32,000 nt of DNA. It comes from Candidatus Heimdallarchaeota archaeon B3_Heim (GTDB lineage Archaea; Asgardarchaeota; Heimdallarchaeia; Hodarchaeales; Hodarchaeaceae). Under the pieces are notes generated by a model, which saw only the letters and a program-made list of their open reading frames with translations, was not told the origin of the DNA and ran no database searches. The stretch's first letter is position 1. Each line of letters begins with the position of its first letter. This document shows positions 16,096-21,390 of this stretch, in pieces. The stretch lies in assembly GCA_003144275.1 (NCBI GenBank), contig NJBF01000007.1, forward strand, positions 9,994 to 41,993, given 5' to 3'. The position numbers and the translations under genes were made by a program.

Positions 16096-17163
16096 TTATG
16101 AGGAGAAATCATTATAATTAAGAAGCTTATTCATAGTTGGATGTTCTTCAAGTTTAGTAATTATTTTCTTTATTTCGTGAGCTCTCCCCTTTTTACACAC
16201 AAAAATGCAATCATTTGTATCAATTATGACCAAATCTTCAATACCCAGTCCGACGATTGGTTTTTCTCCGAATATTATACTATTTTTCACATCGACACCT
16301 AGGAAATCTGATTGAATTATATTACCTTCATTATCTCTGTCCATGATTCTGTCTAGAGAATCCCAAGTTCCAATATCATCCCATTCAAAATCTCCTTTAA
16401 CGACTACCAGATCACTTGACTTTTCCATAATTCCATAATCTATCGAAACTTTCGATAACGGTTCAAATACTTTTTTTGCTACCTGTGGATCAAAATTTTC
16501 TTTTCGAATTGTTTCTAATCCCTCATAAAGAGTTGGCATGAATTTTTTATAGCTCAGATATAGAAAAGAGGGTTTTACAATGAACATTCCTGAATTCCAC
16601 AGATATCCAAGACGTATATACTCTCGGGCTGTAGAAGATGTGGGTTTTTCTTTGAAAGAATTCACTTCAAATGTATTTTCTGTTGTAGCAGTCAATCTAT
16701 TTCCTGGTTCGATATATCCAAAGCGGGTTTCAGCTCTACGTGGTTTTATACCTATTAGTGCAATCTTATTTTGTTCAGCTAATTTGACGGCGGGGTTTAT
16801 CGCAAGTTTAAATTTTGTTAAATCTGGTATAAAATAATCTGCTCCCATAAAAATGGTTACATCATTCTGATCATCATTCAATAAGTGTGAACAAGCATAA
16901 CCAATGCCTGCGGCTGAATCTCGACCTAAAGGTTCGACGATTAGATTTACATCTGGCAATTGTTCTCGAATTAGCTGTTTAAGACTATCCCGCGTCGAAA
17001 TATGAATTTTTTTTGAATCAACAATCTTACAGGCATTATGATACGTCTGTTGGATCAATGAAACGCCTCTATCAAGGGAAATACATTGTTTAGGTTTGTT
17101 TTTACGTGATTTTGGCCATAAGCGTTCCCCTCCGCCTCCTGCTAATATCACAATATTGACCAT
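16096..17163 (-). CDS. Mannose-1-phosphate guanylyltransferase (NTP-transferase domain type)
   Basis: VILAGGGGERLWPKSRKNKPKQ N-terminal signature and overall ManC-like nucleotidyltransferase layout, without a C-terminal isomerase domain. Confidence 0.8.
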   Translation of the reverse strand: MVNIVILAGGGGERLWPKSRKNKPKQCISLDRGVSLIQQTYHNACKIVDSKKIHISTRDSLKQLIREQLPDVNLIVEPLGRDSAAGIGYACSHLLNDDQNDVTIFMGADYFIPDLTKFKLAINPAVKLAEQNKIALIGIKPRRAETRFGYIEPGNRLTATTENTFEVNSFKEKPTSSTAREYIRLGYLWNSGMFIVKPSFLYLSYKKFMPTLYEGLETIRKENFDPQVAKKVFEPLSKVSIDYGIMEKSSDLVVVKGDFEWDDIGTWDSLDRIMDRDNEGNIIQSDFLGVDVKNSIIFGEKPIVGLGIEDLVIIDTNDCIFVCKKGRAHEIKKIITKLEEHPTMNKLLNYNDFSS

Positions 17164-17250
17164 CCTAGTTTCCTCTAAATTTACCCTGCGTGTTATTTCA
17201 ATTGAAAATTTCTATGGACCAAGAATAAAAAGCTTACTCGAATATTCGAA

Positions 17251-17655
17251 TTAATTTTTATGCAAATATTTCCCGATTATTCGAAGTAATTCCGCAGAAC
17301 TGAATGGCTTTGTCACATACTCTTCCGCCCCTGCTTGAAACCCCTCTTCGATATGATGATCAAGAACCTTTGCTGAGAAGATGATAATAGGAATAGATTT
17401 ATGTATAGGATCGGTTTTTAATCGTTTACAAACCTCTATACCATTTAATTCTCCAGGCATTCTGATATCAAGAAGAATTAAATCGGGTTTCTGCTTAACT
17501 TCCTCTAAGGCTTCCGAACCATTTAGGGCCTTGAGTACATCGTAACCTTCATGTCTTAAGATTGTCTGCATTAATTCAAGAGTATCAGGTTCGTCATCAA
17601 CTACTAAAATACTTTTTTTCTCCGAAACCATTCGAAAAACCCGTGGATAATGCAA
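17251..17655 (-). CDS. Stand-alone response-regulator receiver (CheY-like) domain protein
   Basis: ILVVDDEPD, DLILLDIRMPG (phospho-acceptor Asp), IIIFSAK and KPF motifs. The true start may be the internal Met (MVSEKK). Confidence 0.85.
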   Translation of the reverse strand: MHYPRVFRMVSEKKSILVVDDEPDTLELMQTILRHEGYDVLKALNGSEALEEVKQKPDLILLDIRMPGELNGIEVCKRLKTDPIHKSIPIIIFSAKVLDHHIEEGFQAGAEEYVTKPFSSAELLRIIGKYLHKN

Positions 17656-17783
17656 TATAAGCAGAATTTGTAACTTTTTACAGGCTAACTTAGTTAGTTT
17701 AATAATTTTATTTCAGAGTCTATCGGCTTGTAAGATTCTTACTCTTATTTCTGATGAATTATATTGAATAGACCATCCTTTAT

Positions 17784-18392
17784 TTAATTAAAGATCTGTT
17801 CAAGAAATTTTTTATAATTTTCAGGTTCATTCACAGATGACAGATGATTTTGGAGATACTTAACATCGGTGGGAGTGTCTAAATCTCTTGCGCATGGATC
17901 TAAATCTAATATTTCAAATTCTATATGATTCATTTGTGCAGATTGGACATATCTATTTTTACTCTTCAACCCAAAACTGAATGGAAGTAATTCAGGATGT
18001 CTCATATAAAGCATAGCAGTCCCCTTTTTCTCTCCTATCCCCGAAATTGAGGGAACTATCAATAATTCTACATTCTGAGCGCGTTTCAATAATACGTGAA
18101 GACATTTGACAGAAAAAAACGGAAGATCTGGCATTATAATAAGTACTGCTTGTGTCGGGGGTAGTTTTTTACTTGCTTGAGAAAGGGCCTTGTTTAAATC
18201 TGTGCCTTCATCAATATAAGTGAAGTCAGCCCCTAGTTCCAAGCTAAGATCTATTATTTCCTGTGATGGGGAAATTACGCCGAAAGATATACCCCTCCTT
18301 TGAACGACTCTCATTGTCTGCTTGAATATAGCTTTTACTAAGCTTTCAATCGCGTGATTTCGTGTTGAGGCCAGCGTGGATTTAATACGCAT
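17784..18392 (-). CDS. cofC: 2-phospho-L-lactate (or PEP) guanylyltransferase CofC; annotated start probably too short
   Basis: MobA-like fold motifs: LIIMPDLP, GTAMLYM, FSFGLKS and LDLDPCARDLDTPTDV. The family-typical N-terminal LIPIK strand is encoded in frame upstream of the ATG (18393..18449). Confidence 0.7.
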   Translation of the reverse strand: MRIKSTLASTRNHAIESLVKAIFKQTMRVVQRRGISFGVISPSQEIIDLSLELGADFTYIDEGTDLNKALSQASKKLPPTQAVLIIMPDLPFFSVKCLHVLLKRAQNVELLIVPSISGIGEKKGTAMLYMRHPELLPFSFGLKSKNRYVQSAQMNHIEFEILDLDPCARDLDTPTDVKYLQNHLSSVNEPENYKKFLEQIFN

Positions 18393-18496
18393 TTTTGTTC
18401 TTGTAATTTCCTTAATGGGAATTAAAACTAAAACATCTGAAGCCGTTTGCTACTCAACACCTATTATCTGTTGATTTGGGAGAATCGAATAGATTC

Positions 18497-19252
18497 CTAA
18501 AAATCTTTTACCAAGGAGCAAAAAAAACTATTGTTCTTTGTTGCAGCTCGAGCTACTGAAAAATAATCGGCACCTGTTTTTAAAATAGCCTCAGCACTCT
18601 CTAGGTCAACTACTGAATTATTACCAATCACTTCAGTTTGGCTGAATCGCACAAAGCTGGTTAGAAGATTTAAATCTGTACCGGCCATTCCAGTTTGATA
18701 AGAATCTACGTGCAAGTAATCTACTCCCCAATTATTAACCAATTGAGCGAATGAACGGGGATCTACAGTATTCCCACGAATTTTTAAAGAAATAGTAAAA
18801 TCCTTGGATTTAAAAATTGATAGAACGTGAGATAATATTTCAGGCCGATAAATCAAACTTTGGCCTCCTCCGTTTTCTACAAATTCTTGTTGTCTACAAT
18901 GAGCATTTACTTCGATAATTGGACTGGAGGAAATTCTTTCTGAGAGCTCTCTAGCAAAAGATTTAGTGTCTTCTGGATCATTTATCCTTACATTTACAAT
19001 TGTATTAGATATTGATGTAAGATTTTCTAATTCATGAGCAATGTAATCTGCCTCTTCTCCCAATTGCATCATAAATTCAGTACGTCCCCGTTGAGTTGAT
19101 TTAACTGCAGCATTTATCATTTCTTTACCGATTGAATATCCCCCAATTGTCACCTTTCCTAAACAGCCTGTGTCATAAAACCTAGCGGCAAACTCTCCAT
19201 TTGTAATCCCAGCCATTCCTGCTAATATCACTTGTGAAGGGGAAATTTTCAT
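18497..19252 (-). CDS. TIM-barrel flavoenzyme-like protein related to NifR3/Dus and dihydroorotate dehydrogenase
   Basis: ILAGMAGITNGEFA resembles the Dus LAPMAGITD motif, and EVNAHCRQ resembles the N-x-(G/S)-C-P active-site Cys loop. The start lies 1 nt after the cofD stop. Confidence 0.55.
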   Translation of the reverse strand: MKISPSQVILAGMAGITNGEFAARFYDTGCLGKVTIGGYSIGKEMINAAVKSTQRGRTEFMMQLGEEADYIAHELENLTSISNTIVNVRINDPEDTKSFARELSERISSSPIIEVNAHCRQQEFVENGGGQSLIYRPEILSHVLSIFKSKDFTISLKIRGNTVDPRSFAQLVNNWGVDYLHVDSYQTGMAGTDLNLLTSFVRFSQTEVIGNNSVVDLESAEAILKTGADYFSVARAATKNNSFFCSLVKDF

Positions 19253-19253
19253 T

Positions 19254-20186
19254 CTAAAACTCTTCCAATAAGATGTTTAGAATTTGCTGTGCATCAGTTT
19301 GAGTTTTAATGATAATATTGCCAAATAAGGCTTTAACTCCTAATTTTTGGGTCGCACTTTCAAGATTACGGTCAGATTCATGTAAGAGAATGCCATCTAA
19401 AAAGTCGTGAAAAAGTTTAACGACTACAATCGGAGAAGTTTCATAATTCCATGCATGAAGAAATTTGGCAGTAGGGCCAGAAAGGGCCGCATTTCCAATA
19501 ATTGGGCTAATCGCAAATTTTTGGGCTTTTGAGGTTCGGAGGGCATCACGAATAGGGGAGATTGCAACAATTGGTCCTAGGGAAGAAACGGGATTGCTAG
19601 GGCCTAAAATTATGCAATCAGCTGATTCAATTGCAGTAATGACTTCAGAAGTAGTAATGCTCAAATCACCCTCAAAAAAGACATTGAGTACATCTAAATC
19701 TCCCTTGTGTCTTACCCAGTATTCTTGAAGATGTAAAATCTCATTTTCAGTACGAATAATTGTTCTAATTGGCTGGTTAGCCATTGGAAGAATTCTTGAT
19801 TTGATATTCAAACGGTTTGCAAGTTGTTTTGTTGCCTCAGTCAAAGACAAACCTTGGTTTAATAACCACGTCCGAAATAGACATAGACCTGCATCCTGAT
19901 CTCCAAGATTGAACCAAACATCCTCTTTTAAGTTATTTTGTAACATTTTTACCATATTAAATGTATCATTATGAATACCCCACCACTTTGTTGAATCTAT
20001 CAGGTTTGCCAAGGTAAATAATATACTGTCAATATCAGGAGAGACATAAAGACCATAATATCGCCAATCATCCCCTGTATTTCCAATAACTGTAATATCT
20101 CGAGGATCAATAAGAGAATTGATACCTTGTAGTAATTTTGGGGTACCAGTCCCACCTGATAAAAAAACAATCTTTAATGAGCCCAT
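19254..20186 (-). CDS. cofD: 2-phospho-L-lactate transferase CofD (F420-0 synthase)
   Basis: KIVFLSGGTGTPKLLQG, WWGI.NDTF, LGDQD, ILGPSNPVSSLGPI and SPIIGNAALSGPTAKF match CofD along its whole length. Confidence 0.9.
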   Translation of the reverse strand: MGSLKIVFLSGGTGTPKLLQGINSLIDPRDITVIGNTGDDWRYYGLYVSPDIDSILFTLANLIDSTKWWGIHNDTFNMVKMLQNNLKEDVWFNLGDQDAGLCLFRTWLLNQGLSLTEATKQLANRLNIKSRILPMANQPIRTIIRTENEILHLQEYWVRHKGDLDVLNVFFEGDLSITTSEVITAIESADCIILGPSNPVSSLGPIVAISPIRDALRTSKAQKFAISPIIGNAALSGPTAKFLHAWNYETSPIVVVKLFHDFLDGILLHESDRNLESATQKLGVKALFGNIIIKTQTDAQQILNILLEEF

Positions 20187-20274
20187 ATTGTCCCACTTTT
20201 ATCACAAAGTCTTTACCTCATAAATTCCTAATGACATTTAACTTGATTGTATGAAGTACATTATCTGACCTGTA

Positions 20275-21390
20275 ATGAATCAAACTATTCCAGAATGGGA
20301 CTTAATAATCCTTAGAGAGAATGATAGCTTAAATACACAAGTAGTTTGGCATGCTGCTGCATTAGCTAGAAGTCGGGGGATACAAACTCGTGATCTTATC
20401 ATTATCGATTGGCCCACTGATCCAATCGTGGTATGTGGGTTTCATCAAGTTATTGAGCGTGTGGTTGATATTGATTATTGTAAGAAACATGGAATTCCTA
20501 TTAGTCGCCGTGCTTGTGGAGGAGGGGCTGTTCTTTTAGATTCAAATCAGCTTTTTTATAATATCATTTCCCATATTGATTCCACGATTATTCCCAGGAA
20601 TATAACTAAGTTCTTCGAAAGAACACTTGAACCAGTGGCTCAAACCTACCGCCATTTCGGTATAGATGCGGAGTACAAACCTGTTAACGATATAATTGTC
20701 AATAATCGTAAAATTTCTGGTAATGGTGCCGGCTTACTTGAAAATGCTCAAATCTTAGTTGGTAATTTTATCTTAGACTTTCCTCGGAAAGAAATGGCCC
20801 AAATTTTAAAAGTTCCCAATGAGAAATTCCGCGATAAAGTAATTAAATCTTTGGAAGCAGGTATTAGCTCATTTCAAGACGAATTAGGATATATTCCCCC
20901 TCGTGATTCGATCATTAAGGAATATATCAAACAGGTTGAAACAGCTTTTAATATTCGTCTTGTTGAAACTCAGTTTGAACCAGGCACTCTTGAGCTTATA
21001 GAGGATCTTAGAAAAACTTACTTAACCGATGATTGGCTTTACCAAGTGAAGGCCCGAGGAAAACAACTTACTAGTAAAGTAAAGATACACGGATCTGCAC
21101 ATGTGGTTGAGGGGATGTATAAATCTATGGGCGGGTTAATAACGGTGATTTGTGAGTTTAATGATACTATACTCACAGACATTCTCATTAGTGGTGATTT
21201 TTGGATTCTTCCAGACACGGTTCTGCCCAAGCTTGAAAAATCGTTATTAAATCATGATCTAAAAAAAGGAGATCTTATTGATCAGATTGGTTCTTTCTTG
21301 GATGACAATGAATGTGAAACTCCCGGTACATCTGCCTCCGATCTGGCTCAGGCTATTCAGAACGCATTTGACAGTATTTCTAAATTATAA
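20275..21390 (+). CDS. Lipoate-protein ligase A (LplA/BPL_LplA_LipB) family protein
   Basis: RRACGGGAVLLDSNQLFYN and NNRKISGNGAG (the lysine motif of LplA-type ligases), with a C-terminal accessory domain present in the same polypeptide. Confidence 0.7.
   Translation: MNQTIPEWDLIILRENDSLNTQVVWHAAALARSRGIQTRDLIIIDWPTDPIVVCGFHQVIERVVDIDYCKKHGIPISRRACGGGAVLLDSNQLFYNIISHIDSTIIPRNITKFFERTLEPVAQTYRHFGIDAEYKPVNDIIVNNRKISGNGAGLLENAQILVGNFILDFPRKEMAQILKVPNEKFRDKVIKSLEAGISSFQDELGYIPPRDSIIKEYIKQVETAFNIRLVETQFEPGTLELIEDLRKTYLTDDWLYQVKARGKQLTSKVKIHGSAHVVEGMYKSMGGLITVICEFNDTILTDILISGDFWILPDTVLPKLEKSLLNHDLKKGDLIDQIGSFLDDNECETPGTSASDLAQAIQNAFDSISKL

Follow-up and report, generated by a model that had tools for sequence, protein, structure and literature searches.

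In methanogenesis, and in many redox reactions of archaea and actinobacteria, coenzyme F420 serves as the central hydride carrier. To our knowledge, the source of the lactyl group of archaeal F420 has been an open question since about 2001, and the lactate kinase that was proposed for this route has never been found; the revision of the pathway in 2019 reportedly left archaea without a reductase for dehydro-F420-0. Here, we focus on a stretch of 32,000 nucleotides from Candidatus Heimdallarchaeota archaeon B3_Heim (contig NJBF01000007.1; the whole stretch is termed the window), and in particular on a gene that lies between cofD and cofC, two genes of F420 biosynthesis. It encodes a triosephosphate isomerase (TIM)-barrel protein of 251 amino acids (aa), which is probably a flavin mononucleotide (FMN)-dependent ene-reductase that reduces the C=C bond of the F420 side chain at some level of its synthesis.

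The closest described activity is that of FbiE and of FbiB's C-terminal domain (FbiB-C), FMN-dependent dehydro-F420-0 reductases of the nitroreductase fold (Bashiri 2019, PMC6450877; also Braga 2020, in the passages of PMC8498797 that cite it). The possibility that a dehydro-F420-0 reductase, so far unknown, exists in archaea was raised in the first of these studies (PMC6450877), and homologues of FbiB/FbiE have already been reported from Lokiarchaeota (PMC6450877, PMC8498797). A sequence-only reading of the window had put forward the barrel protein as a dehydro-F420-0 reductase or related side-chain enzyme, and had added that no archaeal equivalent was assigned; this statement agrees with the gap described for archaea in PMC6450877, but has to be qualified by the homologues from Lokiarchaeota.

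By fold, the closest described enzymes are of a different kind. They include the tRNA-dihydrouridine synthases (Dus; PF01207, COG0042), which are FMN TIM barrels as is predicted for the window protein, and are represented by Escherichia coli DusB (6ei9) and T. thermophilus Dus (3b0p). Class 1 dihydroorotate dehydrogenase (DHOD) and PreA of dihydropyrimidine dehydrogenase (DPD) are likewise flavin TIM barrels, whose active-site Cys provides the acid/base function for an alpha,beta-unsaturated substrate, either a carboxylate or an amide.

The cofD locus

The barrel gene is the second of three genes that follow one another on the minus strand of the window, and the features of the locus are as follows.

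19254..20186, minus strand: cofD (2-phospho-L-lactate / enolpyruvyl transferase), 310 aa, the gene that opens the unit; TIGR01819 295.8 bits, which passes the NCBI equivalog cut-off of 257.45; Pfam CofD 1.7e-48
19253..19253, minus strand: single-base spacer from the cofD stop codon (TAG) to the ATG of the barrel gene, read from the sequence
18497..19252, minus strand: gene for the MJ0144-family (TIGR00736) putative FMN TIM-barrel protein of 251 aa, a proposed ene-reductase of the F420 side chain; TIGR00736 177.8 bits; Pfam Dus 25.4 bits
17784..18449, minus strand: cofC (guanylyltransferase), comprising the open reading frame (ORF) from the first ATG, 17784-18392, and 19 in-frame upstream codons, 18393-18449; PF01983 55.8 bits; TIGR03552 93.4 bits

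All three ORFs lie where the sequence-only reading had placed them. The gap of one nucleotide that it described is borne out, with the cofD TAG followed by one base and then by ATG, and the barrel protein carries both of the motifs to which it drew attention (LAGMAGITNGEF, which spans residues 10-21, and NAHCRQ, which spans 116-121). Its phrase 'fused into the cofD-cofC operon' is right in that the gene is embedded in the operon, but wrong in that it is not fused to a neighbour. In relatives, the cofD and barrel genes abut or overlap.

Linkage to cofD across archaea

The genomes sampled comprised 151 Asgard genomes, for which the barrel family was called at E ≤ 1e-15, 121 Halobacteriota, 101 Methanobacteriota and 14 named controls. 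Chance is far from accounting for this arrangement of cofD and the barrel gene. The family is found in 33 of the 151 Asgard genomes and CofD in 102; all 33 also have CofD, and 32 of them carry the barrel gene directly 3′ of cofD and on its strand; the remaining case is cut at contig ends. None of the 49 Asgard genomes that lack CofD has the family, nor does any of the 52 CofD-less genomes sampled from Asgard and Halobacteriota together.

The same association extends to other phyla. The family is present in 77 of the 121 Halobacteriota, every one of them with CofD, and the barrel gene directly follows cofD in 25 of the 77. These cofD-adjacent members are of two types, one of 258 aa with high guanine and cytosine content and one of 368-398 aa that is fused to a methanogenesis-marker-9 domain. 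All 101 Methanobacteriota genomes hold the family, and the gene order in Methanobacteriaceae is cofE, cofD, GTP cyclohydrolase III, barrel. Among the 14 controls it was found only in three F420-producing archaea and was absent from the 11 non-F420 genomes.

Of the 21 genomes in the genus of B3_Heim, 19 retain the order cofD, barrel, cofC, even where the barrel proteins are only 45% identical, and in one relative (L030) the cluster continues as cofD, barrel, cofC, cofG, cofH, manC. In other Asgard families, the unit consists of cofE, cofD, barrel and cofC, with overlapping stops and starts. The sequence-only reading had made its proposal depend on linkage to cofC/cofD in other genomes; linkage to cofD is conserved in eight Asgard families, in two Halobacteriota groups and in Methanobacteriaceae, and the proposal withstands this test. 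Members adjacent to cofD occur in nearly every clade of the family tree, and from this distribution the linkage looks ancestral.

The labels of public metagenome-assembled genomes are inconsistent. Record L045, labelled 'Thermoproteota archaeon', corresponds to G107, which is placed in the window's own phylum, and was accordingly rejected as an extra phylum with the family; several genomes of the same genus are labelled 'Promethearchaeota'. Three genomes of one Asgard family (G058, G077 and G092, family f20) each have a true cofD and, elsewhere, three CofD-like paralogues that score 180-200 bits, below the cut-off.

The barrel protein and its family

The best family for the barrel protein is TIGR00736 (E 2.4e-52, model positions 1-230 of 231), and the next is the DusB model at 31 bits. 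TIGR00736 (nifR3_rel_arch, 'MJ0144 family RNA dihydrouridine synthase-like protein') is classed as a 'hypothetical equivalog' without an experimentally known function, and literature searches of the available library for MJ0144, marker protein 9, F420 together with dihydrouridine synthase, and archaeal dehydro-F420 reductase since 2022 returned no functional assignment of the family; a transcriptome hit from Methanobrevibacter had no bearing on the question. The model was built on methanogen members, which explains why the window protein scores below the NCBI curated cut-off of 218.7 bits. Most members from Asgard and Halobacteriota are likewise below it, and 78 of the 101 Methanobacteriota members are above. 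An alignment of 20 members from Asgard, Methanoperedens, anaerobic methanotrophic archaea (ANME) and Archaeoglobi, reaching down to 27% identity, has 26 invariant residues, all of which are found in the window protein. The invariants include MAG..F, GGY, RGRxEF, NxR, E.NAHC.Q, K.R, H.D, GNNS and S.AR, and Cys119 of the window protein sits in the corresponding loop, EVNAHCRQ.

The AlphaFold (AF2) model of the protein is a single TIM barrel, with a predicted local distance difference test score (pLDDT) of 94.6 and a predicted template modelling score (pTM) of 0.93. The structures closest to the model are all flavin-dependent C=C reductases, namely DusB, human Dus2, T. thermophilus Dus, DusC, DHOD-B, DPD, old yellow enzyme (OYE) and FabK. 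The Foldseek match to DusB has an E-value of 7e-12 and a TM-score of 0.71; DHOD-B (1ep1) matches the fold at E 1.4e-9, and DPD (1gth) is also a good fold match. A profile search of Protein Data Bank sequences finds DusB at E 8.6e-21, in an alignment that pairs Cys119 with the catalytic Cys of DusB and K157/R159 with the Lys/Arg of Dus. Similarity to DHOD at the level of sequence is weak (TIGR01037, 20 bits), and no Fe-S or flavin adenine dinucleotide (FAD) partner subunit is encoded near the window gene. Pfam and NCBIfam scans of the protein gave no match to the nitroreductase models TIGR03553 and PF00881.

The likeness to Dus is the closest of these and deserves a fuller comparison. The two align at the catalytic Cys, at the Lys/Arg pair, at the His and at the phosphate-binding GNN/ARA motifs, and the Pfam Dus score exceeds its threshold of 20.4 bits. 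The invariant GGY and RGRxEF, however, belong to residues 33-83, a family-specific insert that has no Dus counterpart in the profile alignment, and the distribution of the family tracks CofD. Both the protein and its model stop where the barrel stops, at residue 251, while the match to DusB reaches only residue 258 of 340; the C-terminal helical tRNA-binding domain of Dus, a protein of 306-340 aa, is absent. The genome encodes a separate Dus of 306 aa (Pfam Dus 160 bits, DusB model 184 bits, TIGR00736 27 bits), which lies 5.3 substitutions per site from the MJ0144 family in the tree. The isoelectric point of this true Dus is basic (9.0), that of the window barrel protein is acidic (5.3) and those of the family range from 4.7 to 9.4, too wide a spread for net charge to serve as an indication of tRNA binding. 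Judged by its sequence, the barrel protein is unlikely to be an ordinary Dus, since it has no tRNA-binding helical domain and since a true Dus is present in the same genome. The conservative alternative offered by the sequence-only reading, that of an ordinary Dus, is weakened by these two points and by the CofD-tracking distribution.

Alternation with the FbiB-type nitroreductase

Asgard genomes that have CofD and lack the barrel encode, adjoining cofD, a nitroreductase-family protein of approximately 205-212 aa, which among NCBIfam models matches TIGR03553, that of the FbiB C-terminal domain, best (99-175 bits). The cofE product of one Asgard family instead has an FbiB-C-type domain fused to its C-terminus. 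Across the 151 Asgard genomes, the nitroreductase occurs in 53, the barrel in 33 and both in none; no taxonomic family is mixed, and 84 of the 102 CofD-bearing genomes hold exactly one of the two. Of the 51 Asgard genomes that have both the nitroreductase gene and cofD, 49 carry the former directly 5′ of the latter. The nitroreductase is absent from the 101 Methanobacteriota genomes, which without exception hold the barrel, and the sampled Halobacteriota gave no strong nitroreductase match.

The comparison with FbiB-C/FbiE reveals both similarities and differences. The reaction and cofactor proposed for the barrel would be the same, with reduced FMN (FMNH2) reducing the enolpyruvyl C=C of dehydro-F420-0, and the two genes both adjoin cofD, the barrel on its 3′ side and the nitroreductase on its 5′ side or fused to cofE. 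The folds are unrelated, a TIM barrel versus the alpha/beta dimer of the nitroreductases; any equivalence would be functional only. The linkage to cofD, together with the exclusivity with FbiB-C/FbiE at the same locus, supports the earlier proposal of a dehydro-F420-0 reductase or related side-chain enzyme as a candidate assignment.

Loss of cofG and cofH in the window lineage

The B3_Heim genome (94% complete) contains cofE, and neither cofG nor cofH was found in it; its nearest relatives are likewise without both genes, the lineage concerned comprising G000 (B3_Heim itself), G013, G020 and G018, and also G001 and G016. In 14 of the 21 genus members, cofH lies next to the cluster. The order in the window is cofD, barrel, cofC, response regulator, manC, and in L030 the pair cofG-cofH (L030:7475-9765) occupies the position of the response-regulator gene, which is located as follows.

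17251..17655, minus strand: response-regulator gene; PF00072 2.3e-30

In comparison with L028, the ratio of non-synonymous to synonymous substitution rates (dN/dS) is 0.14 for cofD, 0.20 for the barrel gene and 0.25 for cofC, values that indicate purifying selection. That cofG and cofH have been lost, yet cofD, barrel and cofC remain under purifying selection, points to a role of the barrel with the steps downstream of 7,8-didemethyl-8-hydroxy-5-deazariboflavin (FO) and not in synthesis of the head group. Because cofC, cofD and cofE are retained without cofG and cofH, the window lineage probably takes up FO from its surroundings.

A second CofE-like gene is present in the same genome (G000:C57:38996-39601; L024:1501-2106). 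It scores 170 bits with TIGR01916, which is below the cut-off, and also resembles the putative folate gamma-glutamate ligase TIGR04132.

Proposed reaction

The barrel protein would work in F420 biosynthesis and not on RNA. The reaction proposed for it is, like that of Dus, the reduction of a C=C bond conjugated to a carbonyl: the enolpyruvyl C=C derived from phosphoenolpyruvate (PEP) would be saturated, giving rise to the lactyl group on the mature cofactor. The likeliest substrate would be dehydro-F420-0, as produced by the CofD from the gene immediately upstream, and the barrel would then do the work of the nitroreductase-fold FbiB C-domain and FbiE without being homologous to them; as the specific substrate, dehydro-F420-0 is put forward tentatively. 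By analogy with Dus, DHOD and DPD, a hydride would be transferred from N5 of the reduced FMN to the terminal CH2 carbon, and the invariant Cys119 of the NAHCRQ loop would protonate the alpha carbon. Five arginines, R55, R57, R89, R120 and R159, are invariant and specific to the family, and may hold the phosphate and carboxylate.

A broader reading would make the MJ0144 family the ancestral archaeal maker of the F420 lactyl group from PEP-derived enolpyruvyl, acting with marker 9 in many methanogens. In that case, the side chain would universally derive from PEP, no lactate kinase 'CofB' would be required, and FbiB-C/FbiE would have come later as a replacement, reaching one Asgard clade as well; we regard this reading as speculative and somewhat doubtful. 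If the role proposed for the barrel is true, the widespread annotation as 'tRNA-dihydrouridine synthase' will have to be corrected, an alternative part for heterologous F420 production becomes available, and the pathway variant used by each Asgard lineage is revealed. A named gene family also renders the question of the archaeal lactyl group testable.

Alternative roles

The same chemistry could take place earlier in the pathway, with PEP reduced to 2-phospho-L-lactate (2-PL), or enolpyruvyl-diphosphoguanosine (EPPG) to lactyl-diphosphoguanosine (LPPG), so that 2-PL would in truth come from the barrel and not from the lactate kinase 'CofB'. The evidence from linkage, distribution and fold applies equally to such an early reduction, and the present genomic data alone do not tell dehydro-F420-0 from PEP as the substrate. 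An early step would suit the preference of CofC/CofD from M. jannaschii and M. mazei for 2-PL/LPPG, the groups of both organisms holding the family, as well as the position of the barrel gene directly before cofC in Heimdall-class operons; several of the invariant arginines would also be appropriate to a small substrate bearing both a phosphate and a carboxylate. Against it, free 2-PL is considered an inhibitor of glycolysis, and the conserved partner of the barrel gene is cofD and not cofC: in Methanobacteriaceae and Halobacteriota, cofC is found elsewhere and the barrel comes after cofD. Given in addition that the enzyme with which the barrel alternates, FbiB-C/FbiE, acts after CofD (PMC6450877), such an earlier reduction of PEP or EPPG is unlikely, though it is the foremost competitor to reduction of dehydro-F420-0.

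Co-occurrence and adjacency show only an association with CofD, and they would also be produced by some other F420-linked role, such as a flavin step making L-lactate for the kinase route, the reduction or repair of FO/F420, or that of an F420-dependent oxidoreductase that travels with the cluster. The gene has been lost from the operon without visible replacement, and in Methanobacteriaceae it stands beside GTP cyclohydrolase III, a gene of the flavin/deazaflavin head group, both of which would be in keeping with such roles. We nevertheless consider them improbable: they leave unexplained the exclusivity with a dehydro-F420-0 reductase at the same locus, a Cys loop in the Dus/DHOD position points to C=C reduction and not to alpha-hydroxy-acid chemistry, and a function in the head group is at odds with a lineage that has no FO synthesis and keeps the barrel with cofC, cofD and cofE. 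More improbable still is that the protein is an archaeal RNA dihydrouridine synthase, as databases label it, that stands in the operon by chance. Dus enzymes are its nearest solved relatives by both sequence and fold, the Pfam Dus threshold is passed (25.4 against 20.4 bits), and the residues of the FMN site and of catalysis are Dus-like, but a protein of 251 aa without the C-terminal helical domain, in a genome with its own Dus at 160-184 bits, makes a poor candidate for this activity. A chance position is equally hard to reconcile with a place next to cofD that is fixed across phyla, with a family found in none of the 52 CofD-less genomes or the 11 non-F420 controls, and with the GGY and RGRxEF of residues 33-83 that Dus does not share.

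Exceptions to the pattern

A number of observations weigh against a side-chain ene-reductase. The cognate CofC/CofD of M. jannaschii and M. mazei prefer 2-PL/LPPG (Hasan 2022, PMC8764529), which fits reduction before CofC, or a lactate-kinase route without a reduction step. The barrel genes of Methanosarcinales, Methanoperedens and Archaeoglobi are unlinked to any cof gene. Neither barrel nor nitroreductase is held by approximately 41 of the 118 CofD-bearing Halobacteriota, five of which were checked with the family profile at E 1e-3; the Asgard families f4, f5, f9, f18 and f22 are also without either. Four genomes of family f3 (L144-L147; G127, G143, G172 and G163) have the order cofD, cofC and a 381-aa gene, from which the barrel has been cleanly deleted; the sister genomes L130 and L131 have cofD, barrel, cofC and the same 381-aa gene. 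Presence or absence of the barrel in f3 is a recent polymorphism, and assembly gaps are ruled out as its cause, the operon being intact as cofD, cofC. Such a clean deletion means that the step is dispensable or replaceable. Finally, nitroreductase-linked CofDs group together in the CofD tree as a single clade (100/99) that is nested next to the barrel-linked CofDs; the swap between nitroreductase and barrel therefore looks like roughly one evolutionary event, a replacement kept since, and not many independent ones.

Loss of the barrel would be tolerable if the side chain comes from 2-PL or 3-phosphoglycerate (3-PG), or if it stays unreduced. According to a review, the main effect of the reduction is to stabilise the molecule, and 3PG-F420 is functional with normal F420 enzymes (PMC8498797).

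Two sets of genes beside cofD were considered as further reductases and rejected. The neighbours of cofD in Halobacteriota do not present a third analogue, being mutually unrelated (M24 peptidase, Fic, DUF763, methyltransferase, and CitG with DUF447). In the Asgard family f5, a conserved ORF of approximately 305 aa without a family match lies directly upstream of cofD (L117:4949-5866, L118:3625-4545, L142:868-1782 and L143:1574-2500); its predicted fold is metallo-beta-lactamase-like (pLDDT 74), with no conserved His ligands. One barrel-less Halobacteriota genome (L134:3323-6341) has cofE and cofD followed by CitG-like and DUF447 genes. Both of these gene types are associated with methanopterin biosynthesis clusters.

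What is new in this analysis is the whole-genome exclusivity with FbiB-C/FbiE, the lineage that has lost cofG and cofH, the caveat of a single replacement event and the exceptions by clean loss.

Methanogenesis marker 9

In Methanosarcinales, ANME-2, Methanoperedens and other Halobacteriota, the barrel carries the Cys-rich marker-9 domain (TIGR03277) at its C-terminus. Examples of the fusion gene are L140:3620-4726, L141:3687-4844 and L047:5956-7092, which in L140 and L141 directly follow cofD. The window protein differs from these members of the MJ0144 family in being without the domain, and no marker-9 domain was found elsewhere in its genome. Where the domain is fused to the barrel, it may deliver the electrons. 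The fusion would give methanogenesis marker 9, an orphan, a first functional context.

The start of cofC and the surrounding sequence

A promoter and terminator scan of positions 17100-20400 gave counts equal to the shuffled expectation, with models that are bacterial and ill-suited to archaea.

The cofC product scores above the cut-off for PF01983 (55.8 against 22 bits) and below that for TIGR03552 (93.4 against 105 bits), as scored from the first ATG and hence without the N-terminal strand. The conserved first beta-strand of CofC (DVLVLIPIK) is encoded at 18393-18449, upstream of the ATG at 18392, and this upstream stretch contains no in-frame ATG, GTG or TTG back to a TAG. It is nevertheless conserved as protein in L028 (dN/dS 0.11 over the 19 codons), and the true N-terminus of CofC is probably upstream of the first ATG. 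In L028 and L034, the first strand of CofC is likewise encoded upstream of the first ATG without an ATG, GTG or TTG start; this pattern of conservation suggests that cofC is likely to be translated from a non-canonical start codon.

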